A stretch of DNA of 55,067 nt from Patescibacteria group bacterium (GTDB lineage Bacteria; Patescibacteriota; Minisyncoccia; Phycocordibacterales; UBA1550): contig JBBTWP010000002.1 in the NCBI GenBank assembly GCA_038062675.1, positions 22,668-77,734 of the forward strand. Direction: 5' to 3'. A program made the translations under genes and the position numbers. The notes under the pieces were generated by a model, which was not told where the DNA came from, searched no databases, and worked only from the letters and a program-made list of their open reading frames with translations. Positions within the stretch are counted from its first letter, which is position 1. Each line of letters opens with the position of its first letter. Below are positions 2,719 to 55,067 of the stretch, in pieces.

Positions 2719-4428
2719 ATGAAGGAGAAATTGGAAATACTCGTGCGTGAGGCACTTGGGGCGCTGGGAGTGGAGGCGACCGCGATTGTTATCGAGCGAC
2801 CGGCTGACATGGCGCATGGAGACTACGCGACAAATGTCGCTCTTGCGTATGCAAAAAAAGCAGGAATGTCACCGCGTGTGCTTGCAGGGAAACTTACGGA
2901 GGAGCTCTTGCGCATGCCTACCGAGGAGATAAAAAATATCGAAATCGCCGGTCCGGGGTTTATCAACTTCAGACTTTCGGATGCGCATTTGAAAGGTGCG
3001 CTCGCTCTGGCGCTCGAGCAAAAAGAAAAGTGGGGGAGCAACGGAACGCTTGTGGGAAAAAAAGTGATCGTTGAATACACCGATCCCAACCCATTCAAAG
3101 AATTTCATATTGGGCATTTGATGGCGAATGCCATCGGTGAGTCTATTTCACGCCTCGTCGAAGCGAGCGGTGCAGAAACAAAACGCGCCTGCTACCAAGG
3201 GGATGTAGGGATGCATGTGGCAAAGGCGGTGTGGGGGATTATGAGGCTAGAAAAGGAAGGGGATATTCTTGCACAGAACGCTTCGGTTCTTGAACATGCA
3301 GCATATCTTGGTAAGGCATATGCCAAGGGAGCTACTGCGTATGAAGGGGATGATTCCATAAAAAAAGAAATTGTTGTAATTAACAAAAAAATATACGAGC
3401 GCGGTGACCTTGGCGTAAACAATGTTTACGATACAGGGAAACAGTGGAGTCTGCAGTACTTTGAAGCAATTTATCAAAAGCTCGGCACAAAGTTTGACTA
3501 CTATTTTTTTGAGAGCGAAACGAGAAAGTTTGGAGAGGAGATTGTGAGAAATAGTGTAGGTAAAGTATTTGAACAAGGGGAGGGTGGAGCTATTGTGTAC
3601 AAAGGCGACGAGACAAAGGGTTTGCACACACGCGTGTTTGTGAATTCAGAAGGACTGCCGACGTATGAAGCAAAAGAGCTTGGTTTGGCGAAAACAAAAT
3701 ATGATACGTATCCGTATGATATGTCGGTGGTGGTCACAGCCAATGAACAGAATGCGTATTTCAAAGTGTTGCTTGCGGCAATGGCGGAGATATTTCCCGA
3801 GCTTGCGGAAAAGACTATTCATATTTCCCACGGAATGCTTCGTTTGCCAACGGGCAAAATGTCGTCACGCACAGGTGATGTCATTACGGCAGAAGGGCTT
3901 ATTGAAGAAGTGAAAACGCGCGTCCAAGAGAAATTCAAAGAGGGCATGTTTTCTCCTGACGAAAAAGAAAAAGTTGCGGAACAGGTGGCGATTGGCGCGA
4001 TAAAATACTCGATTCTTCGCCAAGCATCCGGAAAAGATATTATTTTCGACATGGAGCAGTCGCTGTCGTTTGAGGGCGACTCGGGTCCATACTTGCAGTA
4101 TACCCATGCGCGCACGTGTTCGCTCCTTGCAAAAGCAGAAGGGAAAACTATTGACGCGATGAAGTTTGAAGGAGAAATTGGTACACTCCACAAGTATCTC
4201 CTCCAGTTTCCCGAGGTGGTGTTCCGCGCGAGCGAAGAACGTGAACCGCATCATGTGACGACCTATTTGGTTGAGCTCGCCCGTGCATTCAACGCTTACT
4301 ATGCAAACACGCCCGTCCTCGATGGCTCCCCCAACGAACCCTACAAGCTTGCGCTTGTCCAAGCCGTGTCACAAACCCTCAAAAAAGGCCTTGAGCTTTT
4401 GGGGATACCAACACCTGAGCGGATGTAG
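2719..4428 (+). CDS. argS: Arginyl-tRNA synthetase
   Basis: 569 aa with a class I HIGH motif (FHIGHLMANAIG) and the KMSKS-equivalent GKMSSRTGDV. Length and C-terminal anticodon-binding-like region are typical of bacterial ArgRS. Confidence 0.94.
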   Translation: MKEKLEILVREALGALGVEATAIVIERPADMAHGDYATNVALAYAKKAGMSPRVLAGKLTEELLRMPTEEIKNIEIAGPGFINFRLSDAHLKGALALALEQKEKWGSNGTLVGKKVIVEYTDPNPFKEFHIGHLMANAIGESISRLVEASGAETKRACYQGDVGMHVAKAVWGIMRLEKEGDILAQNASVLEHAAYLGKAYAKGATAYEGDDSIKKEIVVINKKIYERGDLGVNNVYDTGKQWSLQYFEAIYQKLGTKFDYYFFESETRKFGEEIVRNSVGKVFEQGEGGAIVYKGDETKGLHTRVFVNSEGLPTYEAKELGLAKTKYDTYPYDMSVVVTANEQNAYFKVLLAAMAEIFPELAEKTIHISHGMLRLPTGKMSSRTGDVITAEGLIEEVKTRVQEKFKEGMFSPDEKEKVAEQVAIGAIKYSILRQASGKDIIFDMEQSLSFEGDSGPYLQYTHARTCSLLAKAEGKTIDAMKFEGEIGTLHKYLLQFPEVVFRASEEREPHHVTTYLVELARAFNAYYANTPVLDGSPNEPYKLALVQAVSQTLKKGLELLGIPTPERM

Positions 4429-4506: not shown

Positions 4507-7500
4507 ATGAAAGAAGACTCAAAAAAAGTGGAGAATGTAAAATCGGAGATCGCGCTTCGCGAAGAGGCGACGCTTGCGTTTTGGGAGAAAGAAAGGATAT
4601 TTGAACAGTCGCTTGAGGCAACAAAAAACGGCAAAGAATTCGTGTTTTACGATGGTCCGCCGTTTGGGACGGGTCTTCCGCACTACGGACATATTTTGAC
4701 GAGCGTACTTAAGGATGCAATCCCTCGGTATCAAACCATGCGGGGGCGCCACGTGCGTCGCGTGTGGGGTTGGGATTGCCACGGTCTTCCTATAGAAAAC
4801 CTTATTGAAGGTGAGCTTGGGCTCAAAAACAGAAATGATATCGAAGTGTATGGTATTGAGAAATTCAATGAGGCGGCGCGTGCCTCGGTTCTTCGCTATG
4901 ATACGGAATGGCAAAAAATGATTCCGCGTATTGGGAGGTGGGTGGACATGGAGCATTCGTACAAGACGCTTGATGCAAAATACACCGAGTCGATTTGGTG
5001 GGCATTTAAGACACTCTATGATAAAAAGTTGGTGTACCAAGGATTTAAGGCGATGCATGTTTGTCCGCGATGCGAGACAACGCTTTCCAATAATGAAGTT
5101 GCGGATGGCTACAAAAATGTTTCGGACTTGTCGGTGACGGCGAAGTTTGAACTCCTCGATGAACCGGGGACATTCGTTCTTGCGTGGACGACGACACCGT
5201 GGACATTGCCGGGGAATGTAGCACTTGCGGTTGGAAGAGGTGTTGGGTATGCAAAATGGAAAAATGGCGAAGAATTTTTTATTCTTGCTGAAGATTTGGC
5301 TCCGAAATATTTTCCAGATTTTGATAGCACAGATTTTTCGAGATATGAAACTTTTCCCGTAGATTTTTTGATAGGGAAAGCCTACAAACCTATTTTTAAT
5401 TATTATGCGCAAGATGAGAAACTAGAAAATCATAAAAATGGATGGAAAATATACGAAGCAGATTTTGTGACAGCTGACAGTGGTACTGGCGTGGTGCATA
5501 TTGCGCCGGCGTTTGGTGAAGACGACATGGCTCTCGGCAAGAAAGAAAATTTACCGTTTATTCAACATGTCGGCATGGACGGCATTATGAAGCCTGAAGT
5601 GAAGGATTTTGCTGGAATGCAGGTGAAGCCGAAATCGGACGATGAAAAAACGCGGCTCTCGACGGACATTGCGGTGCTCAAATATCTGCAAGACAAAAAA
5701 CTCTTCTTCTCAAAGGAAAAAATTAATCACTCCTACCCGCATTGCTGGCGCTGTGATACACCGCTTTTGAACTACGCCGCAGGGTCGTGGTTTGTAAAAG
5801 CGCCAGAGCTCAAAGACAAGATGCTTTCTGAAAATGCGGGCACGACGTGGGTTCCGGCACACATGCGCGATGGACGTTTTGGAAACTGGATCGCGAATGC
5901 ACGCGATTGGGCTATTTCTCGTTCACGATATTGGGGTGCCCCACTGCCGGTGTGGGAGTGTGCAGTGTGCAACAAGCACGAAGTGTTCGGCTCTTGCGCT
6001 GAGCTTGCAGCACATACAAAAAAATCAGGCAATACGTATTTAATAATGCGCCATGGTCAAGCTGAAAGCAATGTACGAAATATTGTGAGTTCAAAGGTGG
6101 GGAGCGTTCATGACCTCGGCCTTACTTCCGACGGGCGTATTTCTGTATTTGAAGCAACCAAAGATTTAAAAGAAATGCAGGTTGACATGATTGTCGCTTC
6201 ACCGTTCGCGCGCACCAGAGAAACTGCCGAAACGGTGGCACAGGAAGTTGGCATGGATCCAAAAAAGATTGTTTTTGATACACGTTTGCAAGAAATAAAT
6301 ACGGGTGTTTTTGACGGACGCCCTATCGAGGAGTATCGAACTTACTTTGCTTCAATGCTCGAGAAATTTACGAAGGCGACCCCCGAGGAAGAAAATCTTC
6401 TGGAGGTAAAACGTCGTGTGATGGCAGTTCTTGAAGAGCTTGAGGCAAAAGAGCAAGGCAAAACCATTTTAATTGTTACTCATGAATATCCGGTATGGAT
6501 GCTTTCTGCTGGTGCGCAAGGAATGACGGTAGACGAAGCACTCGCAATCAAAGAAGGAAAGGATGATTTTTTGAGTACGGGCGACTTTGTCGAGCTTTCT
6601 TTTACGCCGTTTCCGCATAATGCCGACTTTGAATTTGATCTTCATCGTCCGTATATCGATCAAATCCATGTTGATTGTTCCTGTGGTGGTACTATGGTGC
6701 GTGTGCCGTACGTGTTTGACTGCTGGTTTGAGTCCGGTTCGATGCCGTATGCACAGTTTCATTACCCGTTTGAGAACAAAGAACTTTTTGAGAAAAATTT
6801 TCCCGCGGATTTTATTGCGGAGGGCGTGGATCAGACGCGTGGGTGGTTTTACAATATGCTCGTGCTTTCCACTGGGCTTTTTGGCAAAGCACCATTCAAT
6901 AATGTCATTGTAAATGGCATGGTGCTTGCTGAAGACGGGCAAAAAATGTCCAAGAAGCTCAAAAACTATCCCGACCCTCGGGCTGTTATCGACCGCTATG
7001 GTGCGGATGCGGTGCGTTACTATATGTTGAGTTCGCCCATCACGCGCGGAGAAGACCTGTCTTTTTCTGAGCGTGGCGTGGATGAGGTGGTAAAAAAGCT
7101 GACCATGCGTCTTTTGAATGTGGTTTCGTTTTATGAACTTCACGGCAGTACAGAAGTGACAGCAATAGAAAAGAGCACGCATCCGCTCGATCGATTTATT
7201 TTTGCGCGCATGGCAACGCTGACCAAAGAAATGACGACCGCATTTGACGCATACGAGCTCGATCGCGTTACGAAACCACTCATGCTTTTTGTGGATGACC
7301 TCTCTACGTGGTACCTGCGCCGTTCGCGAGATCGATTTAAATCAGATGATGTTCTGGATCGAACACATGCGATTTTGACCACGCGCACAGTACTCCTTGA
7401 GTTTTCAAAATTGTTGGCACCTATCATGCCGTTTCTCGCGGAAGAAGTATACCGTCGTCTTGGTGGCACGGCAAAGAGTGTGCACTTGGAGTCGTGGCCG

Positions 7501-8016
7501 TTAGTCGGAGCAGTTGATGAAGTGATTCTTGTTGATATGACTGAAGTCCGCCGTGTTGTTTCTGTGGCGCTCGAGGCGCGTGCGAAAGCAGGGATTAAGG
7601 TTCGACAACCACTTGGTAAACTCACTATCAAAGAAGAGGCACTTTCAAATAAGACAGAGCTTCTTTCGCTCATTGCTGATGAAGTGAATGTTAAGCGGGT
7701 TGTTTTCGACAAAACAATTACACAAGAAGTTCTTCTTGATACGGAAATCACCCTTGAGCTCAAGAGCGAAGGACGTTTTCGTGATTTTGTACGCTCGGTG
7801 CAGGATTTGCGCAAGAAAGAAGAGTTGAAGCCAAGCGATATGGTTCTGCTTACGATTGCCACGAATGAAGACGGTGATGTCTTAATCCGTGCTTTCGAGG
7901 ACGAACTCAAGAAAACAGCCATCCTTCGCGAAGTGGTGCTTGTGCCACTCCAAGAAGTTTCCAAAGAGGCAATTATTATTGACGAGATTCCATTTCTTAT
8001 CTCAATTCAGCGCTAA
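4507..8016 (+). CDS. ileS: Isoleucyl-tRNA synthetase (type 2-like) carrying an internal histidine-phosphatase domain insertion
   Basis: HIGH (PHYGH), KMSKK, a CP1 editing block (TTPWTLPGN), AISRSRYWG, and Cys pairs CAVC...CSCGG. I chose ATG 4507 because the upstream candidates 4471 and 4495 lie in or next to the terminator hairpin. Residues encoded by ~6031..6618 form an extra RHG-type phosphatase domain (see findings). Confidence 0.95.
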   Translation: MKEDSKKVENVKSEIALREEATLAFWEKERIFEQSLEATKNGKEFVFYDGPPFGTGLPHYGHILTSVLKDAIPRYQTMRGRHVRRVWGWDCHGLPIENLIEGELGLKNRNDIEVYGIEKFNEAARASVLRYDTEWQKMIPRIGRWVDMEHSYKTLDAKYTESIWWAFKTLYDKKLVYQGFKAMHVCPRCETTLSNNEVADGYKNVSDLSVTAKFELLDEPGTFVLAWTTTPWTLPGNVALAVGRGVGYAKWKNGEEFFILAEDLAPKYFPDFDSTDFSRYETFPVDFLIGKAYKPIFNYYAQDEKLENHKNGWKIYEADFVTADSGTGVVHIAPAFGEDDMALGKKENLPFIQHVGMDGIMKPEVKDFAGMQVKPKSDDEKTRLSTDIAVLKYLQDKKLFFSKEKINHSYPHCWRCDTPLLNYAAGSWFVKAPELKDKMLSENAGTTWVPAHMRDGRFGNWIANARDWAISRSRYWGAPLPVWECAVCNKHEVFGSCAELAAHTKKSGNTYLIMRHGQAESNVRNIVSSKVGSVHDLGLTSDGRISVFEATKDLKEMQVDMIVASPFARTRETAETVAQEVGMDPKKIVFDTRLQEINTGVFDGRPIEEYRTYFASMLEKFTKATPEEENLLEVKRRVMAVLEELEAKEQGKTILIVTHEYPVWMLSAGAQGMTVDEALAIKEGKDDFLSTGDFVELSFTPFPHNADFEFDLHRPYIDQIHVDCSCGGTMVRVPYVFDCWFESGSMPYAQFHYPFENKELFEKNFPADFIAEGVDQTRGWFYNMLVLSTGLFGKAPFNNVIVNGMVLAEDGQKMSKKLKNYPDPRAVIDRYGADAVRYYMLSSPITRGEDLSFSERGVDEVVKKLTMRLLNVVSFYELHGSTEVTAIEKSTHPLDRFIFARMATLTKEMTTAFDAYELDRVTKPLMLFVDDLSTWYLRRSRDRFKSDDVLDRTHAILTTRTVLLEFSKLLAPIMPFLAEEVYRRLGGTAKSVHLESWPLVGAVDEVILVDMTEVRRVVSVALEARAKAGIKVRQPLGKLTIKEEALSNKTELLSLIADEVNVKRVVFDKTITQEVLLDTEITLELKSEGRFRDFVRSVQDLRKKEELKPSDMVLLTIATNEDGDVLIRAFEDELKKTAILREVVLVPLQEVSKEAIIIDEIPFLISIQR

Positions 8017-8043
8017 GGTGAATTGAACAAGCAGGGTTATTTT

Positions 8044-8631
8044 ATGGCGCATCATATTTATCATACGCGCGGAATCATACTTTCGAATGTTGCGACAGGG
8101 GAGGCGAATCGTTTCTATAAATTACTCACGGAAGATTTGGGGCTCATTGGTGCAGTTGCGCAAGGAGTTCGCGAAGGGAAAGGAAAGTTGAAAACGATGC
8201 TTCAAGAATTTTCACGAATTAAGGTTGACTTGGTTCGAGGAAAGGAAGTGTGGAGAATTATCAGTGCAATGGAAGAACGTCCAGCGGGAGGATTGAAAAA
8301 GCAAGGAGAAAATATGGTGTTGTTTGCACGCATGGCATCGCTTGTTCGCCGATTGGTGCATGGAGAGGGTCGGAATGATGAATTATTTAGGGACATGCTC
8401 GCCGCACATGATTTTTTGGAGATGGTTGCGATTCCCGCGAATTTAGTGCCCGCATTTGAAACACTTAGTACTTTGCGCGTGCTTGTATGGCTCGGATATT
8501 TTGATGCTTCCTCGTACGAAATGTTTTGTAAGCTGGGGCCATGGACTATGGATATGTTGACTGAGTGGGATAAAGTTCATTCGCGTGCGGTTTCCGATAT
8601 CAATGCCGCGCTCAAGGCGTCGCAACTTTGA
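8044..8631 (+). CDS. recO: DNA repair protein RecO-like
   Basis: The N-terminal pattern HTRGIILSNVATGEANRFYKLLTEDLGLIGAVAQGVREGKGKL...IKVDLVRGKE resembles the RecO OB-fold region. It is ~195 aa. The ORF track starts at TTG 8023, and I prefer ATG 8044. Confidence 0.65.
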   Translation: MAHHIYHTRGIILSNVATGEANRFYKLLTEDLGLIGAVAQGVREGKGKLKTMLQEFSRIKVDLVRGKEVWRIISAMEERPAGGLKKQGENMVLFARMASLVRRLVHGEGRNDELFRDMLAAHDFLEMVAIPANLVPAFETLSTLRVLVWLGYFDASSYEMFCKLGPWTMDMLTEWDKVHSRAVSDINAALKASQL

Positions 8632-8662
8632 GTCTTTACCCTCGCATTTTCTTGATTGATTA

Positions 8663-8671
8663 TGGTATAAT
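8663..8671 (+). promoter_or_regulatory. Extended -10 box (TGGTATAAT) 7 nt upstream of ATG 8679
   Basis: TGnTATAAT consensus. The predicted transcription start coincides with the start codon and there is no SD. Confidence 0.5.
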
Positions 8672-8678
8672 AGTTTTT

Positions 8679-10595
8679 ATGAGCACTGACGGAAAAAGTA
8701 GGATTGCGGAGCTCGAAAAAGAGCTTAACGCAAAAGAGTTTACTCCGCACAAAGCCGCAGACACTCTGGAGCCCAGAGCTTCGGATGTTAGGGTAGCTTC
8801 ATCGTGGGATCAACCAAAAGATTCTACGGCGCTTGCTGCGGAAGAGGTGCACATAGCACAACACCACCATCTCATGAAAAAAATACTTCTCGGTTCGTTG
8901 GGCTTTTTTGTGGTTGCGGTGGCAATTGCGATGTTTGTTTCGTTAAACAGAAGCAATCTTGTTTCCCCTGATAAGATTGCAATTAATATCACTGCTCCTG
9001 TTGCGATTTCCGGTGGGGATTCTTTTGAAACAAAAATCACTATTGTAAATAATAATAGTGTGCGCATCGATCAGGCAGATCTATTTTTTGAGTATCCTAG
9101 CGGGTTTTATTCTGCATCCGACAAGAGCGATTTGCTTCGAGTCTCACGCAACATCGGAGCCCTTTCTTCTGGAGAATCTGCTGAAGAGTCAGTGAATACT
9201 ATGGTGTATGGAGAGGAAAATACTGAAAAAGAAGTGCGTGTTGTTTTGGAGTATCGCTTGGCGGGGTCGAACGCAACATTTAAAAAATTTACGACTTATG
9301 TCGTGAAAGTAACCTCTTCTCCCGTGAACGTAAAACTGGGAATGCTTAAAGAGGCAAGTTCCGGACAAGAAGTAGAACTTTCGGTTGACGTAGAATCAAA
9401 CAGCATTCGTTCGATGGAGAATTTGTTGCTCGACGTTTCATATCCTTTAGGATTTACATTTTTAAGTGCATCTCCAGCTCCAAGTTATCAAAACAATGTT
9501 TGGAATATCGGCACACTTGCGGCACAGGGAAAGCGTACGATCAAGATCAAAGGAATCGTTGAGGGTCAGGAAGGGGAAGAAAAAGTTGCAAAAGTTTCTT
9601 TGGGGACGCAAAGCTCGAAGGATGAGCGAGTCATCGGCGTGGTATACACCACCACCACTGAAACACTTGCACTCACCAAGCCGTTTCTGGGGGTCGACCT
9701 TGTAGTGAATGGTGATCGTTCACCTGAGTATGTTGCCACCAAAGGCGAAGCACTTCGCGTGGATGCATTTTGGGTCAGTAATAATACGAGCCCCATTACT
9801 GATGCGGTCATTGAGATAAAGCTTAAAGGCGAGGCGCTCAACAGGTATTCTGTGTACGCTTCAAATGGAGGTTTCTATCAATCCATAAACGATACTATTG
9901 TTTGGGAAAAATCACGAAATCCCGAGCTTGCAGTTATCGAGCCGGGGGCGCGTGGTAGTGTGAGTTTCAGTTTCTCTCCAATTCCTCTCTCTGTCGATGC
10001 GGGAAGGATTTTAAAAAATTCCCAAATTGTTCTTGAGCTTAAAGCCCGCGCACGTCGTCACACAACGGGGAGCATCTCCGAGGAAGCTTCAACGTTTGCA
10101 AGTAGAAAAATAAAGCTCGAGACTGACATACGGCTGACTGCACGAAGTCTCTACTATGCCGGACCATTTAAAAATATCGGAACGCTTCCTCCTCGCGCAG
10201 ACAAAGAAACGACATATACTATTGCATGGACAGTGCACAACGCTTCAAACAATATTTCAAATGTGTTTGTGCGTACAACACTTCCTATCTATGTGAAATG
10301 GCGTGGAGCCGTAGATCCTGCGGGGGAAGATGTTGTGTATAATGAGAGCGGAGCCGAAGTGGTGTGGAACGCGGGAAGAATTCCGTCGGGGGGTTCTCGT
10401 GAAGTTGCGTTCCAGATTGGACTCACACCAAGCTTGAGTCAGATTGATACTACGCCACTTTTGACTGGAGACAGTCTTTTAACGGCAGTTGATGATTTTA
10501 CAAAAACTAATCTTCGTGACAAAAAATCCGCAGTAACAACGAATCTTTCCTCAGACCCACAATTTGGTCAAAATGAAGGAGGTGTGATAAGATGA
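8679..10595 (+). CDS. Membrane-anchored protein with repeated beta-sandwich (DUF11/CARDB-like) modules
   Basis: One TM helix (ILLGSLGFFVVAVAIAMFVSL) is followed by ~540 aa containing recurring blocks such as NVWNIGTLAAQGKRTIKIKG and VVWNAGRIPSGGSREVAFQIG. The ATG at 8679 is preferred over the upstream alternative start at 8628. Confidence 0.8.
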   Translation: MSTDGKSRIAELEKELNAKEFTPHKAADTLEPRASDVRVASSWDQPKDSTALAAEEVHIAQHHHLMKKILLGSLGFFVVAVAIAMFVSLNRSNLVSPDKIAINITAPVAISGGDSFETKITIVNNNSVRIDQADLFFEYPSGFYSASDKSDLLRVSRNIGALSSGESAEESVNTMVYGEENTEKEVRVVLEYRLAGSNATFKKFTTYVVKVTSSPVNVKLGMLKEASSGQEVELSVDVESNSIRSMENLLLDVSYPLGFTFLSASPAPSYQNNVWNIGTLAAQGKRTIKIKGIVEGQEGEEKVAKVSLGTQSSKDERVIGVVYTTTTETLALTKPFLGVDLVVNGDRSPEYVATKGEALRVDAFWVSNNTSPITDAVIEIKLKGEALNRYSVYASNGGFYQSINDTIVWEKSRNPELAVIEPGARGSVSFSFSPIPLSVDAGRILKNSQIVLELKARARRHTTGSISEEASTFASRKIKLETDIRLTARSLYYAGPFKNIGTLPPRADKETTYTIAWTVHNASNNISNVFVRTTLPIYVKWRGAVDPAGEDVVYNESGAEVVWNAGRIPSGGSREVAFQIGLTPSLSQIDTTPLLTGDSLLTAVDDFTKTNLRDKKSAVTTNLSSDPQFGQNEGGVIR

Positions 10596-10662
10596 CCCTT
10601 TGAATCATCAAGATTGGATAATGAATCATATGTCGGATAAACAAAATATTGCAGAAGGCCGG

Positions 10663-12057
10663 ATGGAAAAAATTACTTCGCTCTCAAAAAGGCGCGGGTT
10701 TGTATACCCCTCTTCAGAGATTTATGGCGGCGTTTCTGGTGTGTACGACTATGGGCATTACGGCACACTCCTCAAAGAAAACATTAAGAATGAGTGGTGG
10801 AAACACATGGTGCAGTTTCGTGATGACGTGTACGGTTTGGATAGCGCTATTTTCATGCATCCGCAAGCATGGGTTGCGTCTGGGCATGTGGGAGGGTTTA
10901 ACGACCCGCAAATAGATTGCCGAAACTGCAAGTCTCGTTTTCGCGCTGATCATGTGCTGGAAGGTTTTGGTATTGTGGCTGACAAGATGCCGATTGATTT
11001 TATTAACACCGAACTCGACAAACTGCGCGCAGAGAAAAAACTTGTTTGTTCAAAGTGTGGTTCCGCCGACATTACTCCGGCAAGATCATTTTCAATGATG
11101 GTGAAGTCAAACCTTGGTTCGCCGGTGGATATTTTGACCGAAGAGAATGTTATGTATTTGCGTCCAGAAACGTGCGGAGGTATTTATCTTGAGTACAAAA
11201 ATACACTCGACTCACTTCATCCAAAATTGCCGTTTGGTATTGCGCAGGCGGGCAAGGCATTTCGCAACGAAATCGCTGCCCGACAGTATATTTTTAGAAC
11301 GCGCGAGTTTGAGCAATTGGAAATGCAATATTTTCACAATCCTGCACAGACGAAAGAGCTCTATGAAATGTGGAAAGAAACTCGATGGCAGTGGTTTTTG
11401 GATCTTGGTATCCCTGCAGAAAAGCTCCGTTTTTACAAACATGAAAAACTCGCGCACTATGCGAGTGATGCTTACGACATTGAATACGCATTTGATTTTT
11501 TCGGAGGGGATTTCAAGGAAGTGGAGGGGATTCATGCGCGTGGAGACTGGGATTTGTCGCAACACTCAAAGTTTTCCGGTGTATCGCTTGATTATTTTGA
11601 TGAGGAAACAAAGACGAGATTTACGCCACATATTATGGAAACGTCAGTTGGTCTTGGACGTCTGTTCCTCATGTTTATGGACAACGCTTATACGGAGGTG
11701 GTGGAAGGCGAAGAGACGAGGGTGTTTTTGAAATTTCCGCCGCGCCTCGCGCCGGTTAAATGCGCAATTTTCCCGCTGCTTAAAAACAAACCTGAATTAG
11801 TGGCGAAGGCGCGCGAAGTTTTTAATACGCTCCGCAAAGAGTTTATGTGTGAATTTGATGACAATGGTAACATCGGCAAACGCTATCGCCGTCAAGACGA
11901 GATTGGTACACCGTGGTGTGTAACGATTGACTTTAATACTCTTGGAGAGACTCCCGACCTCAAAGACACGGTTACGGTGCGCAATCGCGACACAGGAACT
12001 CAACAGCGCCTTTCTCTTTCTGAATTGTCAGGGTTTTTGAAAAATAGTATAATATAA
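10663..12057 (+). CDS. glyQS: Glycyl-tRNA synthetase (dimeric GlyQS type)
   Basis: MEKITSLSKRRGFVYPSSEIYGGVSGVYDYGHYG is the canonical GlyRS N-terminus, and class II motifs follow downstream. GAAGG lies 5-6 nt before ATG 10663. In-frame ATGs at 10621 and 10630 are alternative starts. Confidence 0.93.
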   Translation: MEKITSLSKRRGFVYPSSEIYGGVSGVYDYGHYGTLLKENIKNEWWKHMVQFRDDVYGLDSAIFMHPQAWVASGHVGGFNDPQIDCRNCKSRFRADHVLEGFGIVADKMPIDFINTELDKLRAEKKLVCSKCGSADITPARSFSMMVKSNLGSPVDILTEENVMYLRPETCGGIYLEYKNTLDSLHPKLPFGIAQAGKAFRNEIAARQYIFRTREFEQLEMQYFHNPAQTKELYEMWKETRWQWFLDLGIPAEKLRFYKHEKLAHYASDAYDIEYAFDFFGGDFKEVEGIHARGDWDLSQHSKFSGVSLDYFDEETKTRFTPHIMETSVGLGRLFLMFMDNAYTEVVEGEETRVFLKFPPRLAPVKCAIFPLLKNKPELVAKAREVFNTLRKEFMCEFDDNGNIGKRYRRQDEIGTPWCVTIDFNTLGETPDLKDTVTVRNRDTGTQQRLSLSELSGFLKNSII

Positions 12058-12104
12058 GAAGGTTCCCTTGTTTCGCTGTGTGTTTTTGCGAGGAGGGTTG
12101 AGCG

Positions 12105-12278
12105 ATGGAAATTGTCTTAATATTTCTCGTTGTTCTTAGTGTGGCAGTAATAGTTGTAGGTTTTCAGGTTTTTTGTTGGGCGATCTGGACATTGCAAAGC
12201 GGACTTTTGTTTTCAGTTGCGTTCATTTTTTTGGTGATAGGTAGTTTGATTATGGGCTTGGCGGTCATATCTTTATAA
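12105..12278 (+). CDS. Small hydrophobic (two-TM) peptide, 57 aa, not in the ORF track
   Basis: AGGAGGG lies 7 nt upstream of the ATG. Translation is MEIVLIFLVVLSVAVIVVGFQVFCWAIWTLQSGLLFSVAFIFLVIGSLIMGLAVISL, followed by a weak hairpin plus T-run at ~12319..12344. Confidence 0.55.
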   Translation: MEIVLIFLVVLSVAVIVVGFQVFCWAIWTLQSGLLFSVAFIFLVIGSLIMGLAVISL

Positions 12279-23016: not shown

Positions 23017-25179
23017 TCAGTTTGAACGAGTTTGAAAGAGGCCATCCGCAGGTAGAACCCCAACCCCATTTGTCCAACGAGGATCATTGTCGTCTGTGTT
23101 CCCGACTGTGTTCCAAATGAAGCCACTCATAGTTGTCCCCAATACATCGTTCACTGTTCCTAGAGCAAAATTTTCTGCTCCGGTTGACGATGAAAAGCGG
23201 GGGTCCCCCAAGAGTTTTGTGACGCAGGCGTAGGTTACTTCCTTTGGTACCACGGTCCCTTTGAGCCTGAAATAATAAGCCCCACCGGCTGGCACAGTAA
23301 CTGGCGGTAGTCCAAAGTAAAGCCCTACACTGTTTGTTGACGGACCAAGCTTTATTGTTCCCGTGAGGTTGCCTTCCACAACTCCATATATCGGTGTGGT
23401 GTAGCTCTGGTCACTATAGGCAAACAATGCAACATCCTTAATCTCCAGTCCTGTGCAGCTAATGGAAAAACTCATATGACGCAACGCGACGTCCCCATGC
23501 CAATCAGCCATTACTTTGAATTGAATGAAACTTCCATCCGCAAGACTTGTCGCGTTTAGAGGTTCCAATGCAACCGTGGGAAATGACTTGAACATGCGAT
23601 ATCCTGCAGTTTCTGTGTACCCAACCACGTTCGTGACCAGACCAGACGAATCGCCGATAGCAAAGGTGGTTTCTGGGTCTATTTCAATCCGAATGAAAGC
23701 ACCTTCAATTCCCGGATATCCAAGACCTGTATCAGAAAGAGTTGCGCGGATGGTAAAATCTTTGCAAGTTTCTGTTGAAACCCATGGACCTGATCCCTTA
23801 AGGAGCATTGTTGTGGTGAGACGATCTCCCACAAAAATAGATGAACCCCATTGCAGAGTTTCTCCTCCTTCACCTCTGTAGTCCCAAATTGTGACGTCGA
23901 CGAGGCTTTGCGGAGAACCTGAAGCCAATCTCAAGCCAACTTGGTAGAGATACTGACCTTCGTTGGTCCCACAAAACCTATAGACCCCAGAATTGACATC
24001 TTTTGAACCAGAAGCCACGAGGGTATATGACGGACTACGAGGCGATGTGGAGACGGATAATGATCCTACTCCAATCGTTATCGTACTGCCACTGACCCCT
24101 ATGCCGGTTACCGGTACATTTGTGCCTGAAGCCACGCCGGTTGCGATTACTGCTTTGATTTGCTCCGTACTTATCCTCCATGTGAACATGCTCCCTTGAG
24201 GGGTGCTTGAAGAAATGTTGCATTTGAGCCTCAATGTCTTTATCGTGCCTTTCAGAACGGTAAGGGCCGAGTCGTAGATGAACGTTTCTTTCCATGTGTA
24301 AGGATTCACAATGTTGGACCCTGTGTTGATTGGCGTTGCGCCATCAAATAGTTGACATGCAGATAGATCTGCATAGATGCCAGGGCCAGGGTTTAGGGTA
24401 AGAGGGAGGCTGTGAGTACGGACGTCCTCAGCTGATGCAGACGCATCAAGCTGGAATTCCGCGAATACCACCCCCTTCGTTCCTGCAACAATAGTATGCG
24501 CAGGCGGGTTTACCGATTGCGAAATACTGAGTGCGGGACCTCTTGCTGTCACTGTGCTCATGATGAGTAATGTGTCAGCGAGAGTAATGCCTTTGCCAGT
24601 AGCTTGATCTTTTACACCCACCCAATCTTTTGAGGGATTGAATGATGTGGTAAATGTCGTGCCATTGGAAGTCTCCGAACTCACCATCCCCTTGAGGACA
24701 TACGTGTGTCGCCCTTTTGGGTAGGTAACCATATCGGTGAACGTCACAATCTCGGAATCACCTTCACCGCGTGTTGCATCAACGGGACCGGCGACAATTG
24801 CGCCAGTTTCGTTGTAAAGTGCAACATTTGTTGAGAGAGGTGACCGAGCGGATGCCCTGATATGGAAGATTGAAGTGTCCGCCGATGTTGGTCCGTTCGG
24901 AACATCGATGATGTACCCACCAAGATATTGGCGAGGTACACCGATGGCAATGTTTTGAGCGGGAGTATTCAGCAGTGTGACCGTTACGCCACAGGTGTCT
25001 GTTCCCGCCGCCACGACGCACGTCGTTTCGGTTTCAGGTAACGTGGGGCAGGGGACTTCTTTGCCGTCCTGCACACACGTGACTCGCACTTCCGGTGGGA
25101 CTTCTTTAGGAAGCTTGATGACGCACGCTGTCGTGCTTGCCACCAAGAATGCCAAAAGCCACAGTTTCATTTTCTGCAT
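23017..25179 (-). CDS. Secreted/cell-surface protein, paralog of the central region of CDS 31900..35394
   Basis: N-terminal signal-like MQKMKLWLLAFLVASTTAC and AAGGAGAGG just upstream of the ATG. Long blocks are collinear with the 1164-aa protein, for example LYNETGAIVAGPVDA / LYNVNGAIVAGPVDA, LDASASAEDVR / LDASQSGEDVR and CQLFDGATPINTGSNIVNP / CQLFDGTTALNTGSNVVNP. Confidence 0.87.
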   Translation of the reverse strand: MQKMKLWLLAFLVASTTACVIKLPKEVPPEVRVTCVQDGKEVPCPTLPETETTCVVAAGTDTCGVTVTLLNTPAQNIAIGVPRQYLGGYIIDVPNGPTSADTSIFHIRASARSPLSTNVALYNETGAIVAGPVDATRGEGDSEIVTFTDMVTYPKGRHTYVLKGMVSSETSNGTTFTTSFNPSKDWVGVKDQATGKGITLADTLLIMSTVTARGPALSISQSVNPPAHTIVAGTKGVVFAEFQLDASASAEDVRTHSLPLTLNPGPGIYADLSACQLFDGATPINTGSNIVNPYTWKETFIYDSALTVLKGTIKTLRLKCNISSSTPQGSMFTWRISTEQIKAVIATGVASGTNVPVTGIGVSGSTITIGVGSLSVSTSPRSPSYTLVASGSKDVNSGVYRFCGTNEGQYLYQVGLRLASGSPQSLVDVTIWDYRGEGGETLQWGSSIFVGDRLTTTMLLKGSGPWVSTETCKDFTIRATLSDTGLGYPGIEGAFIRIEIDPETTFAIGDSSGLVTNVVGYTETAGYRMFKSFPTVALEPLNATSLADGSFIQFKVMADWHGDVALRHMSFSISCTGLEIKDVALFAYSDQSYTTPIYGVVEGNLTGTIKLGPSTNSVGLYFGLPPVTVPAGGAYYFRLKGTVVPKEVTYACVTKLLGDPRFSSSTGAENFALGTVNDVLGTTMSGFIWNTVGNTDDNDPRWTNGVGVLPADGLFQTRSN

Positions 25180-31899: not shown

Positions 31900-34800
31900 A
31901 TGAGTAAAAAATCAATTGCGGGAGTGATCGCATTGGTGGCTGGCTTTTCGTTCATTGCTTCAGCAATGGCGGCAACCATCACCTTTACGACATCTCTCAA
32001 ACAAGGTAGTACCGGCATGGATGTGAAAAACCTCCAGATGGTACTCAACATGAGTTCAGACACACAAGTGTCTACGGTAGGAGCAGGTTCACCGGGAAAT
32101 GAGACAAGCACGTTTGGTCCTGCGACCAAAAAGGCTGTCATGAAGTTCCAGGAGAAATATGCTTCTGAAATTTTAGCACCGGTTGGCCTTACTTCAGGAA
32201 CCGGATTTGTTGGTCCTTCAACTCGCTCGAAACTTAACATGGTTGCGGCAGGAGGAGTTTCAACAGGTTCTACAAGTACCATCCCTGGTTGTACTTCAAC
32301 CGCTGGATTCAGTCCAACGACAGGTCAATCATGCGCAGGCGCTGTAGTTACTCAGCCACCAGCTGCAGGAACAACAACGACTTGTACAACGGTGGGCAGT
32401 GTAACGACATGTACGACAACCAGCGGAACTTCGGTTTCAGGTGGTCTTACTGTTTCAGCACCTGCACAGCCGGGTAACGGTCTTGCTGTAGAAAGTGCAG
32501 CGCGCGTTCCATTTACCAAAGTTACTCTTACAGCAGGAGCTTCTGATGTAACAGTAAATGGTATTACGGTAGAGCGCACAGGTGCGGCAAGTGATTCCGT
32601 CTTCTCTGGCGTTGTCCTTGTTGATGAGGATGGTACTCAGCTCGACATCGCAAAGACATTTGGTTCAACACACCAGGCTACGGTTGGTGGTACCTTTACG
32701 GTAAAGGCAGGAACTTCAAAGACTTTGACGATTGGAGGAAATATTGCAGCAGACCTTAGCTCTTACGCAGGTCAGGTTGCAAGTATCTCGGTAGTAAGTG
32801 TAAACACATCAGGAACAGTTTCTGGTGCGCTCCCTATTTCCGGAGCAATGCACACAGCTAATAGTACGCTCACAATTGGTACTGCTGTAGGTTCAACGTC
32901 ATCATATGATCCAGGAACAACAGCAAGTAAAGCAATTGGTACGACTGGCTACAAGTTTACAGGCGTTCGCGTTACAGCTGGTTCAGCTGAGGATGTTCGC
33001 TTGAAAGCAACTCGCTTCTATCAGGCTGGTTCAGCAGGGTCAGGCGATCTTTCAAATGTGAAGATCTATGTTGACGGAACAGCTTACGACACGACGGTTT
33101 CAGCAGATGGTAAGTACTACTCTGCAAACTTTGGATCAGGTATTGTCATCGCTAAGGGTCTTGGGAAAGACATCTGGATTGCTGGCGATATCACTGGTTC
33201 TGGTTCAGCTGCACGCACGGTTGACTTCGACATCCAGAAGAACACCGACGTATACGTTGTTGGCGAGACTTACGGGTACGGAATTATTGGAAGTGGCACA
33301 ATTACCACATCAACTCCTTCGTTGAATGGTTACGCTCTTACAATCAATGCAGGTTCAGTAACTTCGGTTAACAAGGCTCTTTCAGTAGGAGCTCAGAACG
33401 TTGCTGTTAATGTTGCGAACCAAGTACTTGGCGGATACGAAGTTGATCTCAAGGGTGAGCCAATTTCAGTTCAAAGTCATGTATTTACTATCGCTTCAAC
33501 AACTGGTAGTGGCACAGGTCTCTTGACAAGTGTTTCTCTCTACAACGTCAACGGAGCTATTGTAGCTGGTCCAGTTGACGCAGTGTTTGTTGATGCTACG
33601 ACACAAACAGTAACCTTTACCGACACCGTAACCTACCCTATCGGCAAGAGTATCTACACTCTTAAAGGTAAGGTGGCTTCAGCTATCGGTAATGGTGGTA
33701 CGTACATCGTAAAAACAACTCCTTCTTCACAGTGGACGAGTGTAACAGGTCAGACGACTGGAAATACAATCAGTCTTTCTTCTCTTTCTACTCAAGTTGT
33801 GATGAACACAATGACAGTACGAGGCGCTGCTCTTGGTGTTAGTGTATCAACACAGCCACCTGCACAGACTGTTATTACAGGTTCACAAGGATTCACGTTT
33901 GCTAACGTCCTCTTGGATGCTAGTCAGTCAGGTGAAGATGTACGATTCTCTTCAATCCCACTTGCTATGACATTCGCGACAATGGTGGTAAGTGAAGCAA
34001 CTTCATGTCAACTCTTTGATGGTACAACGGCTTTGAACACAGGTTCAAACGTAGTGAACCCATCAGGAGCTTCAGATGCTGATACGACATTCACATTCGA
34101 TCAGTCATTGGTAGTAACAAAGGGAACAGTTAAGACTCTTGCTCTTAAGTGTAATGTTGCAAGTTCGGTGTCAGCTGATGATACTCTTTCATGGGGTATC
34201 AACGCAGCACCTACAATTGCAGTAACAGGTGTAACTTCAGGAAATGATGTAACTGAAACAGTTACCGCTTCAGCTGGTCAAACAATGACCGTTGCTGCAA
34301 CTGGTTCTTACACAGTAACAAGTGATGCAGCACTTCTCTACAAAGCAGTTCAAGCAGGAACAACAGGTGTTGAGCTTGCTAAACTTCGCTTTACTGCTGG
34401 ATCATCTGAGAATATTAGTTTGAAGCAAATTGCTCTTGAGTTGGGCAACACATCTTCAAGTTCACCTGCTGATCTTTCTGGTCAGACGGTAACCTTGTGG
34501 AATGGCGCAACTCAGATTGGTACCGCACAGTTTGGTGTTGGTGCTTCTCCTGACAATGCAACTTCTACTCAATTGTCTCCTGCTCCAACAATTACTGCTG
34601 GAGAATCAGTGATGATTACTGTTAAGGGTGACCTCACAGCTCACAACGCAGTCGAAGGAACACCAGGCGCATTCTTGTCTGTAACCTACGATGGTAATAA
34701 CGTTGGAGTTAACGGTAACTACGCTCTTGGAGTTTCTTCTCAAGCAAACATTAGCTCGGGAACAACTTCAGATGTAACAACGACTGGCATGAGAATCTTC

Positions 34801-35394
34801 AGAACAGTTCCTACTGTTGCAGTAACAAGTACTGGCGGAACAGGAACATTGCAGGCTGGAGCAGATTTGTACAAGTTTACAGTTACAAATCCAAACACCA
34901 GAGATGTTGTGTTCCAGAAGTTTAGCTTCTCGATTGCTACATCAAGTTCTGCTGTAAATGCCTTCACACTTTATGGTGATGGAGTAGCATTCAACACGAC
35001 GGCAGTAACGGTAAACAGCACTGAAGGAGCTGTGTTGGAAATCCCAGCAAGTGGCACTTCAAATGCACAGGTTATTGCTGCAAACAGCACGAAAACCTAC
35101 ATCTTGAAGGCTGCTACAGTACCTAATGGAAGTACAACGGTGATTGACTCAATCACACTTGCTCTTCTTGCGGATACATCATATCCTTCACTTTCAGGAA
35201 ATGTGGGCACAGTAACTACAGTTGAAGCTGGATCAGCTGACACAGACAACATTGTTTGGTCACCGTTCTCAACAACAACTCCTGTTGCTACAGCCGCTAC
35301 GCAAAGTAACCTCGACTGGACGAACGGATACGGTTTGCCTGGATTCCCATCCAACACCGCATTCCCAACCCAGACTTGGACAAGCGCAAACTAA
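31900..35394 (+). CDS. Very large cell-surface protein: signal/TM, peptidoglycan-binding-like domain, Cys-bracketed mini-motifs, many Ig-like repeats
   Basis: 1164 aa. The N-terminus MSKKSIAGVIALVAGFSFIASAMA is followed by LKQGSTGMDVKNLQMVLN...FGPATKKAVMKFQEKY...GFVGPSTRSKLN (PG_binding_1-like). The T/S/G/V-rich remainder is paralogous to CDS 23017..25179. Confidence 0.9.
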   Translation: MSKKSIAGVIALVAGFSFIASAMAATITFTTSLKQGSTGMDVKNLQMVLNMSSDTQVSTVGAGSPGNETSTFGPATKKAVMKFQEKYASEILAPVGLTSGTGFVGPSTRSKLNMVAAGGVSTGSTSTIPGCTSTAGFSPTTGQSCAGAVVTQPPAAGTTTTCTTVGSVTTCTTTSGTSVSGGLTVSAPAQPGNGLAVESAARVPFTKVTLTAGASDVTVNGITVERTGAASDSVFSGVVLVDEDGTQLDIAKTFGSTHQATVGGTFTVKAGTSKTLTIGGNIAADLSSYAGQVASISVVSVNTSGTVSGALPISGAMHTANSTLTIGTAVGSTSSYDPGTTASKAIGTTGYKFTGVRVTAGSAEDVRLKATRFYQAGSAGSGDLSNVKIYVDGTAYDTTVSADGKYYSANFGSGIVIAKGLGKDIWIAGDITGSGSAARTVDFDIQKNTDVYVVGETYGYGIIGSGTITTSTPSLNGYALTINAGSVTSVNKALSVGAQNVAVNVANQVLGGYEVDLKGEPISVQSHVFTIASTTGSGTGLLTSVSLYNVNGAIVAGPVDAVFVDATTQTVTFTDTVTYPIGKSIYTLKGKVASAIGNGGTYIVKTTPSSQWTSVTGQTTGNTISLSSLSTQVVMNTMTVRGAALGVSVSTQPPAQTVITGSQGFTFANVLLDASQSGEDVRFSSIPLAMTFATMVVSEATSCQLFDGTTALNTGSNVVNPSGASDADTTFTFDQSLVVTKGTVKTLALKCNVASSVSADDTLSWGINAAPTIAVTGVTSGNDVTETVTASAGQTMTVAATGSYTVTSDAALLYKAVQAGTTGVELAKLRFTAGSSENISLKQIALELGNTSSSSPADLSGQTVTLWNGATQIGTAQFGVGASPDNATSTQLSPAPTITAGESVMITVKGDLTAHNAVEGTPGAFLSVTYDGNNVGVNGNYALGVSSQANISSGTTSDVTTTGMRIFRTVPTVAVTSTGGTGTLQAGADLYKFTVTNPNTRDVVFQKFSFSIATSSSAVNAFTLYGDGVAFNTTAVTVNSTEGAVLEIPASGTSNAQVIAANSTKTYILKAATVPNGSTTVIDSITLALLADTSYPSLSGNVGTVTTVEAGSADTDNIVWSPFSTTTPVATAATQSNLDWTNGYGLPGFPSNTAFPTQTWTSAN

Positions 35395-36275: not shown

Positions 36276-36905
36276 ATGAGCACAGAAACACCGGCACCGT
36301 CGACACAGACAGCACCCAAAGAGCCTAAAATACCCTCAAAGCTTCGCAAATGGCTTAAGAGGATTGGGTGGACGGTGTTGGGAGTTTTGGTGTTTTTTGC
36401 GCTACTGGGGCGGTTTTCTAAGGAAGTCTATGTTGGGTATGGCACAGTGCTCGAATATTTTTATAACATCCAGCGTGACAAAGTGCTTGCAGAGTATGCA
36501 AAAGACACTATTGGCGGGGAAACCCCTGAAGAAGTGTTTGATCTCCTCATTGATGCGCTCAAAAAGGGGGATATTGACCGCGCGGTGAGTTATTATGATT
36601 TGCCAAGGCAAAAGGAAAAGAGAGGAGATTTTGAGCGTCAACTAAAAGCAGGAGGAGATTTCAAAGTAGCACTTAATTTTTTTGAGACGGTTCGCATGAA
36701 GGGAAAAAAAGATTGGTGCGGGAAAAATTATGAGAATGATAATGCATGTGTTTTTGTTTATAAATTTATCACAACAGAAGATGCGACTTCCTCAATAAAG
36801 AATAGTAGCGACAAAATATTTATTCCCAAAGGAAGTCCAGAGAAGTGGCGAGTGGAGATTTTGCAAAATCGTTTTAATAATGTGTGGAAAATTTGGCGCC
36901 CATAA
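36276..36905 (+). CDS. Membrane-anchored hypothetical protein (209 aa)
   Basis: The N-terminal basic region plus TM (IGWTVLGVLVFFALLG) is followed by a small alpha+beta-looking ectodomain. It ends 2 nt before the next gene's ATG, so the two are probably one operon. Confidence 0.75.
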   Translation: MSTETPAPSTQTAPKEPKIPSKLRKWLKRIGWTVLGVLVFFALLGRFSKEVYVGYGTVLEYFYNIQRDKVLAEYAKDTIGGETPEEVFDLLIDALKKGDIDRAVSYYDLPRQKEKRGDFERQLKAGGDFKVALNFFETVRMKGKKDWCGKNYENDNACVFVYKFITTEDATSSIKNSSDKIFIPKGSPEKWRVEILQNRFNNVWKIWRP

Positions 36906-36907
36906 TC

Positions 36908-46474: not shown

Positions 46475-46502
46475 TTGCTTTTTTTTTGTGGCGTGGGACA
46501 AT
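46475..46502 (+). promoter_or_regulatory. Promoter TTGCTT-16-TGgGACAAT (duplicated at 50081..50108)
   Basis: The same -35, spacer length and extended -10 occur upstream of both paralogous surface-protein genes. Confidence 0.5.
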
Positions 46503-46540
46503 GTAGTCATTATTATGTAAAGGCACCCTTTGGTATTTCC

Positions 46541-53090: not shown

Positions 53091-53828
53091 ATGGTTCAGC
53101 GCGGGTACACTGCGCGGGACAGTACAAAAGATATGCAGGATGGATTAATCACACAGTGGGGCATGCAGCTTAATGACGCTTTTCAGGGTATTGGTATTGA
53201 GATTCTTCAATTCCTTCCAAAGCTCGTGCTCGCAATTATTATTTTTATTGCAGGATGGGTTGTGGGCTCAGTGCTCGCAGAAGTTATCGAGAAGTTGGTG
53301 AAGGCGCTCAAGGTTGATGCGCTTCTCGAAAGTGCCGGCGCACGCAACTTGATGCACAAAGCAGGATTTCATTTGAACACGGGCGCATTTTTGGGTGGAC
53401 TCGTAAAATGGTTCCTCGTCGTGGTCTTCTTGGTTGCTTCACTCGACGTACTCGGACTCGACGGAGTAAATACCTTCTTGCGTGATGTAGTCCTTGGATA
53501 CATTCCTCAGGTAATTGTTGCAACTTTGATTCTTATTGTTGCCGCAGTGCTTGCTGATATTGTCCACAAGCTTGCTATGGGTGGAGCAAAGGCTCTTGAT
53601 TCAAAATCAGCAGGCTTTATCGCCGGCATCGCTCGTTGGGCTATTTGGATTGTTGCTATTCTAGCAGCGCTCTCACAGCTTGGTATTGCAGGAGGTATGA
53701 TGCAGACACTCTTCACAGGACTTGTAGCAATGCTTGCTCTTGCCGGTGGTCTTGCATTCGGCCTTGGGGGCAAAGAGGCAGCAGCTCGCTTCATTGAGAA
53801 GCTTCGTGGAGATATTTCAAATCGCTAA
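53091..53828 (+). CDS. Polytopic membrane protein with repeated conserved-TM-helix modules (mechanosensitive-channel-related family, tentative)
   Basis: Repeated units of the form LPKLVLAIIIFIAGWVVGSVLAEVIEKLVKALKVD / IPQVIVATLILIVAAVLADIVHKLAMGGAKAL / ARWAIWIVAILAALSQLGIAGG. Confidence 0.82.
   Translation: MVQRGYTARDSTKDMQDGLITQWGMQLNDAFQGIGIEILQFLPKLVLAIIIFIAGWVVGSVLAEVIEKLVKALKVDALLESAGARNLMHKAGFHLNTGAFLGGLVKWFLVVVFLVASLDVLGLDGVNTFLRDVVLGYIPQVIVATLILIVAAVLADIVHKLAMGGAKALDSKSAGFIAGIARWAIWIVAILAALSQLGIAGGMMQTLFTGLVAMLALAGGLAFGLGGKEAAARFIEKLRGDISNR

Positions 53829-54179: not shown

Positions 54180-55067
<888 letters not shown>

Follow-up and report, generated by a model that had tools for sequence, protein, structure and literature searches.

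A histidine-phosphatase domain nested in the CP3 subdomain of a type-2 isoleucyl-tRNA synthetase from Patescibacteria

The ileS locus and its product

The window analyzed here is a stretch of 55,067 nucleotides (nt) from a Patescibacteria group bacterium (contig JBBTWP010000002.1 of assembly GCA_038062675.1, positions 22,668–77,734), and all positions given without a contig name are those of the window. Its ileS gene, at nt positions 4507–8016 of the + strand (stop codon included), encodes a type-2 isoleucyl-tRNA synthetase (IleRS) of 1169 amino acids (aa). A histidine-phosphatase domain is embedded within this protein, in the third connective peptide (CP3) subdomain. The ileS open reading frame has an upstream TTG start option at 4471 and an ATG at 4507, and it is unbroken by stop codons or frameshifts up to position 8016. 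A first-pass annotation made from the sequence alone had described the synthetase and its insert as one in-frame polypeptide of 1170 aa; the single reading frame is borne out, but the chain length from the ATG is 1169 aa. P0016, the corresponding public gene call, likewise has 1169 aa.

The assignment to type-2 IleRS rests on several lines of evidence. The protein passes the TIGR00392 ileS equivalog model with 848 bits (cut-off 621), and its top matches in the Protein Data Bank (PDB) are type-2 IleRSs, which align over the full length with an E-value of about 1e-216. Analysis of the whole protein with Pfam shows tRNA-synt_1 in two stretches, His_Phos_1 at aa positions 512–679, Anticodon_1 and DUF5915. 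An AlphaFold2 model built from an 80-sequence alignment has a mean predicted local distance difference test score (pLDDT) of 87.2 and a predicted template modeling score (pTM) of 0.78. The IleRS body of this model superposes on type-2 IleRS structures with template modeling (TM) scores of 0.77–0.84, the values for Priestia megaterium IleRS2 being 0.77–0.82.

The signature motifs of a class I synthetase are present. The HIGH signature of the aminoacylation site, H59-Y-G-H62, is at nt positions 4681–4692 (+ strand), and the 80-sequence alignment A1 shows no variation at H59, G61 and H62. The KMSKS-type loop, K813-M-S-K-K817, is at 6943–6957 (+ strand); in the same alignment K813 and K816 are invariant and S815 is nearly so. 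Two blocks of the CP1 editing domain, TTTPWTLPGN and GTGVVHIAPAFGEDD, are invariant or nearly invariant in IleRSs of the window type. Thus the host protein is a member of type-2 IleRS, with predicted aminoacylation and editing activities. Its HIGH and KMSKS motifs, CP1 editing domain and DUF5915 C-terminus are also those of two bacterial enzymes of type 2, the eukaryote-like and mupirocin-resistant type, namely P. megaterium IleRS2 (8c8u/8c8v) and the IleRS of Thermus thermophilus (1ile). Membership in two special IleRS groups was considered and rejected: the MupA/MupB resistance IleRS models give 699–720 bits against a cut-off of 1900, and the model for IleRS with a GNAT domain (NF040702) gives 323 bits against 1999.

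Position of the insert

Alignment with P. megaterium IleRS2 (8c8u) places the insert at aa positions 505–703, i.e. 199 aa encoded by nt 6019–6615 of the + strand. Residue 504 of the window protein pairs with residue 478 of 8c8u and residue 704 with residue 480, thus the insert replaces about one residue. Known type-2 IleRSs have one residue (8c8u) or a short hairpin at the place where the window protein has a 199 aa phosphatase segment.

The insert emerges from the tip of CP3, where it separates the CxxC half of a zinc knuckle from the CxC half. The first half, C485-x-x-C488, is at nt positions 5959–5970 and the second, C724-x-C726, at 6676–6684, both on the + strand. In an alignment of 144 full-length fused IleRSs, to which the conservation values of the nested domain below also refer, C485 is 94% and C488 92% conserved, and the values for C724 and C726 are again 94% and 92%. 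The C724-x-C726 pair aligns with the CxxC of 8c8u that lies downstream of its residue 480. The first-pass annotation had proposed that the insert splits the two cysteine pairs of the zinc knuckle, and C485/C488 and C724/C726 do flank it.

The assignment to CP3 is based on published domain maps. In yeast IleRS, CP3 is preceded by a segment named "linker CP2-3" (ARDWNVSRNRYWG), and this linker lines the A76 pocket that takes up the tRNA 3′-end (PMC7955072). T. thermophilus IleRS has a zinc motif in its CP3, and the topology of CP3 varies among IleRSs (PMC7191050). The window protein shows the same order, with C485-x-x-C488 following the CP2-3 linker ARDWAISRSRYWG, and it has a zinc-knuckle CP3 as in the T. 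thermophilus enzyme. At neither junction of the insert is there a sharp break in GC content. In the AlphaFold2 model the insert and both junctions have pLDDT values of about 86–96, with about 90 on either side of the junctions.

The nested domain is a branch-1 histidine phosphatase

The Pfam His_Phos_1 domain (PF00300) is matched at aa positions 512–679 (nt 6040–6543, + strand) with an E-value of 3e-31 and 109 bits, the gathering cut-off being 21.7. The match covers positions 2–168 of the 194-position profile, at 109–114 bits. When the segment that the first-pass annotation had singled out (nt 6031–6618, aa 509–704) is searched alone, the E-value is 7.7e-33.

The catalytic residues of the family are all in place. 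R515-H516 of the RHG motif (nt 6049–6054, + strand) are 100% conserved in the 144 nested IleRS domains; H516 is presumably the nucleophile, as judged from what is known of the family. The second phosphate-binding arginine, R569, is in the motif SPFARTRETAE (6211–6213, + strand) and is also 100% invariant. The putative proton donor, E596, is in LQEINTG (6292–6294, + strand) and is 99% conserved, and the second catalytic histidine, H659 of IVTHEYP (6481–6483, + strand), is 100% invariant. Further conserved positions are S565 and E629 (100%), R637 (99%) and N522 (97%). Among representatives of 50%-identity clusters the identity of the insert falls to approximately 32%–40%, and the catalytic set is still fixed, a sign of purifying selection; the IleRS cores of the 144 sequences drop to 35%–40% identity.

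Modeled alone with AlphaFold2, the insert has a pLDDT of 89 and a pTM of 0.88. Foldseek searches with this model give TM scores of 0.72–0.80 and E-values down to 3e-14 against the phosphatases PspA, GpgP and PhoE; the best match is Hydrogenobacter thermophilus PspA (TM 0.74), and GpgP, the glucosyl-3-phosphoglycerate phosphatase of Mycobacterium tuberculosis, reaches up to 0.80. Profile score, catalytic residues and fold agree that the insert is a complete branch-1 histidine-phosphatase domain. This is what the first-pass annotation had claimed from the RHG/R/E/H signature, and its motifs TYLIMRHGQAESN, ASPFARTRETAE, LQEINTGVFDG and ILIVTHEYPVWML are present as described. Whether the insert folds as a discrete domain had been put forward there as a check, and it is confidently modeled as such, folding on its own. 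The nested phosphatase is apparently catalytically active, as judged from its conserved residues. A relic is unlikely because the catalytic residues are invariant across the 144 sequences, and the relic fusion that had been listed among the possible roles is therefore disfavored.

Relation to characterized phosphatases

The closest solved structures are PhoE of Bacillus stearothermophilus (1h2e/1ebb), PspA (4ij5), GpgP Rv2419c (4qih) and the HFP of Aquifex aeolicus (9mmh). These have the same fold and size as the insert (TM 0.72–0.80) and share with it the RHG...R...E...H set and a GGE lid motif. They differ in that they are free-standing metabolite phosphatases of 21%–26% identity, whereas domains of the window type are nested in a synthetase or encoded beside one.

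Curated subfamily models were compared in turn. A 2,3-bisphosphoglycerate-dependent phosphoglycerate mutase (dPGM) was rejected: the bacterial dPGM models give 15–31 bits against cut-offs of 305–378, and TIGR01258 (pgm_1) gives 24 against 81.7. GpmB (56.5 bits, cut-off 261) and dPGM_arch (84 bits, cut-off 225) are also below their cut-offs. ERHYG and HGNS are motifs specific to dPGM, and the window protein reads QEINTG and THEYP at these positions. Nor is the insert an α-ribazole phosphatase CobC (TIGR03162, 76.6 bits against 162.9) or a phosphoserine phosphatase of the PspA family (NF045917, 58.7 bits against 350), even though PspA is the best structural match. The phosphohistidine phosphatase SixA model (TIGR00249) is matched only over the N-terminal third, with 28.5 bits against 74.5. 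The riboflavin-pathway HFP of A. aeolicus is the best PDB sequence match (E-value = 4e-9, 23% identity), but the likeness is judged to be generic. Homology points to no particular substrate of this phosphatase subfamily.

The second-best NCBIfam match of the insert is PRK07238 (79 bits, cut-off 326), an RNase H/acid phosphatase of the Rv2228c type. It offers a precedent for a CobC/PhoE-like His_Phos domain joined to a nucleic-acid enzyme, although the fusion with RNase H is end to end and not nested. The ileS_w_GNAT family (NF040702) is in turn a precedent for an IleRS that hosts an extra enzymatic domain; the domain family differs, and probably also the site. That the connective peptides of class Ia synthetases accept whole catalytic domains is seen in the CP1 editing domain itself.

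A role as a protein phosphatase may be considered here, i.e. removal of an inhibitory phosphate from the synthetase, e.g. from the serine of the KMSKS loop, or from another translation factor. The histidine-phosphatase superfamily includes the protein phosphatases SixA, PGAM5 and Sts-1, and HipA-family kinases phosphorylate the KMSKS-loop serine of GltX and TrpS. Tethering in cis to class I synthetases would be sensible for such an activity, and S815 of the KMSKK loop is the nearly invariant residue noted above. Against this, the SixA model falls well short of its cut-off, structure searches favor metabolite phosphatases, and the neighborhoods examined contain no kinase partner, nor was there a match to PADLOC. 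This explanation is considered improbable.

Distribution of the nested form

PF00133 and PF00300 occur together in every one of the 120 best full-protein homologues (56%–76% identity, 1060–1231 aa). The named members of this set belong to Candidatus Yonathbacteria, Minisyncoccia/Minisyncoccota, Paceibacterota, Parcubacteria and Patescibacteria. Their labels do not go beyond "isoleucyl-tRNA synthetase", "class I tRNA ligase family protein" or "hypothetical protein", while precomputed Pfam annotation lists PF00300. An exhaustive HMMER scan with the insert alone covered 1.84 billion representatives of 50%-identity clusters. Among its best 150 matches there are 99 in which IleRS sequence directly flanks the domain, with IleRS cores as low as 35%–40% identity to that of the window.

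GTDB genomes (one per species) were scanned with two peptide patterns from the insert, and 317 species representatives hold a relative of it. The loci of the best 80 of these 317 species were examined. All 80 show the N-terminal half of IleRS, the phosphatase and the C-terminal half of IleRS in one frame, with the insert at the same site. Titles of these loci include Candidatus Yonath-, Nomura-, Portnoy-, Lloyd-, Taylor-, Giovannoni- and Wolfebacteria.

Two independent contigs, L001 (JGI) and L002 (ENA), have the same arrangement but are broken by frameshifts. In L002 (contig_5272, 68 kb; genes at 8371–11960) ileS, argS and many other genes are split into fragments of 60–190 aa, and the contig looks like an error-rich long-read assembly. 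Due to this fragmentation the insert first appeared there as a separate "protein" of 134 aa (P0002).

These data bear on whether an assembly chimera or frameshift artefact has joined a phosphatase gene to ileS, a question that the first-pass annotation had raised. The window itself lends no support to an artefact, and the splitting of genes in L001 and L002 is due to frameshifts throughout those contigs. The same in-frame junctions are found in 80 of 80 independent genomes and 120 of 120 homologues, from NCBI, JGI, ENA and Logan; there is no compositional break, and the junctions are confidently modeled. An artefact can practically be dismissed. The nested architecture is genuine, ancient and fixed across the clade in Paceibacteria, hence it is not rare.

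Full-text literature searches, with subscription-only literature outside their scope, found no description of a histidine phosphatase in or beside IleRS or valyl-tRNA synthetase (ValRS), which agrees with the earlier remark that an IleRS of this kind is not known from previous descriptions. Nested IleRS sequences have been public since the genome releases of 2015–2016 for the Candidate Phyla Radiation (CPR). The architecture is thus present in databases, with automatic Pfam matches, but has apparently gone unremarked; source names such as "class I tRNA ligase family protein" and "hypothetical protein" hide the phosphatase domain.

Stand-alone phosphatase genes beside ileS

Homologues of the insert are also found as real separate genes of about 190–195 aa, with 30%–37% identity to the insert. 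In all five informative contexts (L083, L084, L085/086, L087/088 and L089) the stand-alone gene adjoins an ileS that lacks the insert. In four of the five it is on the same strand as ileS, with a gap of 2–11 nt or a short overlap.

In L083 the His_Phos gene is at 5576–6148 and is followed after 10 nt by IleRS. In L084 it is at 671–1258, and the called open reading frames of the phosphatase and of the IleRS that follows overlap by 11 nt. L085 has a 193 aa His_Phos protein at 1158–1739, an 8 nt gap, a 949 aa IleRS whose CP3 knuckle is uninterrupted, and then RecO; L086 is a short contig with the same protein, where the His_Phos gene and the start of IleRS are again 8 nt apart. L087/088 display the order ArgRS, His_Phos (L087 positions 2120–2707), IleRS (984 aa), a small open reading frame, RecO and a DUF11-like protein. 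In L089 ArgRS and His_Phos (2107–2679) are followed by IleRS on the opposite strand, i.e. convergent.

The gene order is that of the window. Here argS (2719–4428, + strand) is the upstream anchor of synteny; downstream of ileS are recO (8023–8631, + strand, with a RecO_N domain) and a gene for a DUF11 protein (8628–10595). The split-form loci match this order of ArgRS, IleRS, RecO and DUF11 protein, and in these relatives the stand-alone His_Phos gene sits between argS and ileS. Upstream of the stand-alone gene, L083, L087 and L088 encode ArgRS Pfam domains, and tblastn with the window ArgRS matches L083–L087 and L089. RecO comes after ileS in L085 and L087 and is present in 50 of the 80 nested-locus flanks.

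A second phosphatase copy was not found within 4 kb of any of the 80 nested loci. As the stand-alone gene lies beside an insert-less ileS, and no second copy lies near the nested loci, the nested and split forms are thus alternative encodings of the same pair. The two forms differ in predicted isoelectric point: nested domains are acidic (median 5.7; window 4.9) and stand-alone proteins basic (7.7–10.7), a comparison confounded by the AT-richness of the genomes. In a rough neighbor-joining tree of IleRS cores, calculated without support values, the split-type IleRSs fall inside the diversity of the nested type, and the change may have been either capture or excision.

Phosphatase domains in ValRS and at other IleRS sites

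Four His_Phos domains are found in P0157, which resembles ValRS. Among its 119 closest ValRS relatives, from a search with P0157 (P0157 and P0295–P0412), 70 have at least one His_Phos_1 domain. These are full-length synthetases with Anticodon_1 and Val_tRNA-synt_C domains, and the named ones are from Candidatus Gracilibacteria and Peregrinibacteria, a sister class within the CPR. These ValRSs have one to three copies each (four in P0157), some in tandem arrays of two or three at the CP3 site. The preferred position is between WGHxIP and DTWFSS, the hairpin homologous to CP3, where 73 of 83 copies are found; eight are just before DWCISRQ. A Nomurabacteria ValRS was found to have no His_Phos domain.

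The open reading frame of P0157 stops at an in-frame TAA (L092 positions 3852–3854) inside the fourth His_Phos domain, and past this codon the domain resumes without a change of frame. Coverage of the contig is about 2x, and the stop may represent a sequencing error or a pseudogenised copy.

In the ValRS-nested copies the Arg-His pair is kept in 81 of 81, the second arginine in 80, the second histidine in 72 and the glutamate in 56. The losses of glutamate and of the second histidine show that degenerate copies can persist, and to this extent they favor a catalytically dead domain, structural or relic, that is kept as a CP3 scaffold or spacer. The IleRS clade argues otherwise, since its catalytic residues are 97%–100% conserved while the identity of the insert drops to about 32%–40%. 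A dead domain is accordingly regarded as very unlikely for the nested IleRS.

A different arrangement is seen in P0250 (L091 positions 8001–12260), an IleRS of 1419 aa. Its CP3 zinc knuckle is intact, and two catalytically intact His_Phos domains are located elsewhere, at aa positions 576–734 and 890–1032, one of them ahead of the anticodon-binding domain. There are six near-identical members of this type, on contigs of up to 1.06 Mb. Judged from its neighborhood, which encodes POR, SufBD, PurA, DAHP synthase and an SLH protein, the genome is apparently not of the CPR type. A neighbor-joining tree of the phosphatase domains is too poorly resolved to separate one origin from several, and it suggests that the domains of P0250 and P0157 are outside the main IleRS-CP3 group. 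The phosphatase is thus linked to class Ia synthetases in four architectures, and CP3 is the favored site in two paralogous hosts. This pattern is wider than the first-pass annotation, which had noted neither the stand-alone gene nor the ValRS counterparts nor the further insertion sites.

Possible function of the synthetase-linked phosphatase

Gene fusion, conserved adjacency and recurrence point to a functional partnership. It appears rather probable that an active phosphatase is functionally coupled to IleRS, a claim of which the substrate is not part. Aminoacyl-tRNA synthetases are among the best-studied enzymes, and the bacterial ones are thought to be poor in accessory catalytic domains beyond editing. 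The pattern points to an unrecognised phosphate-removing step tied to the charging of branched-chain amino acid tRNAs in CPR bacteria.

For the substrate, we tentatively prefer a phosphorylated tRNA acceptor end, a choice that is open to considerable doubt. Inserted at the CP3 tip of an otherwise intact type-2 IleRS, a small histidine phosphatase of this kind (about 195 aa, PhoE/GpgP/PspA-like) would provide a third catalytic site for the acceptor end, beside the synthetic site and the CP1 editing site. It could remove a blocking 2′- or 3′-phosphate, a cyclic phosphate or a toxin-added pyrophosphate from the CCA end. The repaired tRNA would then be passed directly to the aminoacylation site and charged on the same enzyme. 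Such a repair or anti-toxin function might be exerted in cis, from CP3 of IleRS or ValRS, or in trans, by the protein encoded beside ileS. As a general scheme for class Ia synthetases, this third station is a doubtful proposition.

Three considerations favor a tRNA-end target. The insert comes directly after the linker that lines the A76 pocket (PMC7955072). The CCA end already shuttles between two catalytic sites on IleRS and ValRS. Enzymes that pyrophosphorylate the CCA end exist, the toxSAS enzymes, and some of them are specific for particular tRNA species (10.1101/2021.04.30.441581; PMC11559606). The next option is a nucleotide or another small phospho-ligand of the aminoacylation cycle.

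Several points weigh against these proposals. We know of no histidine phosphatase that acts on an RNA 3′ end, and the acidic character of the nested domains does not suggest RNA binding. Repair limited to tRNA-Ile, or to tRNA-Val, would be odd unless the damage itself is tRNA-specific. The PADLOC anti-phage defence models match neither the whole protein nor the insert nor its stand-alone homologues. A stand-alone His_Phos gene was absent beside the ValRS lacking the domain at the two loci examined. CP3 is structurally variable (PMC7191050) and may just be a permissive loop, and an earlier gene adjacency could account for capture without functional coupling.

A different explanation sees in the domain a common phosphomonoesterase for small molecules, of the PhoE/CobC/PspA/GpgP/HFP type, which the cell needs in metabolism or salvage and which was captured from a neighbor of ileS into a tolerant loop. 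It would be kept for its own activity, and its only tie to aminoacylation would be that a streamlined genome expresses it together with an essential gene. Metabolite phosphatases make up all of the nearest solved relatives, no other IleRS subdomain is as variable as CP3, the stand-alone gene beside ileS is a simple source, and the acidity of the nested domains fits as well. The choice of host also has the look of any tolerant protein, i.e. IleRS in Paceibacteria, where the Nomurabacteria ValRS is without the domain, and ValRS in Gracilibacteria. On the other side, independent nesting at a homologous site in two paralogous class Ia synthetases speaks against it, and tandem arrays of up to three or four copies together with two further IleRS sites are hard to obtain by neutral capture alone. 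All curated NCBIfam equivalogs for a specific metabolic phosphatase or mutase are moreover far below their cut-offs. This explanation is the main rival and a serious possibility, on balance an unlikely one.

The consequences differ with the target. If the tRNA 3′-end is the target, as we prefer, the domain would add a new activity to RNA repair or to the defence against toxins, and the histidine-phosphatase fold would have a role not seen before. If it is a metabolite, the phosphatase would close a gap in what is a sparse metabolism in CPR bacteria, and the locus would show clearly how a nested domain is captured from a neighboring gene.

Other features of the window

The 5′ part of a 23S rRNA gene is at window positions 54195–55067 and runs off the window end. 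Upstream of it there is a protein open reading frame (53091–53828) but no 16S rRNA or tRNA gene, and the rRNA genes appear to be unlinked. No tRNA genes were found in the whole 55 kb window.

Upstream of argS, at positions 356–2569, is an open reading frame of 737 aa whose only Pfam match is a GNAT acetyltransferase domain at the C-terminal end (aa 621–699). Very large open reading frames with little or no Pfam similarity are found at 31900–35394, 23017–25179, 36884–40417, 46475–49396 and 50150–52840; those of 1164 aa and 720 aa have no match. Unusual domain pairings are seen among the large open reading frames of the window: one combines a Lamin-tail domain and a beta-helix, and a protein of 973 aa has PG_binding_1 together with cyclophilin. 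These large open reading frames look like surface proteins of CPR bacteria.

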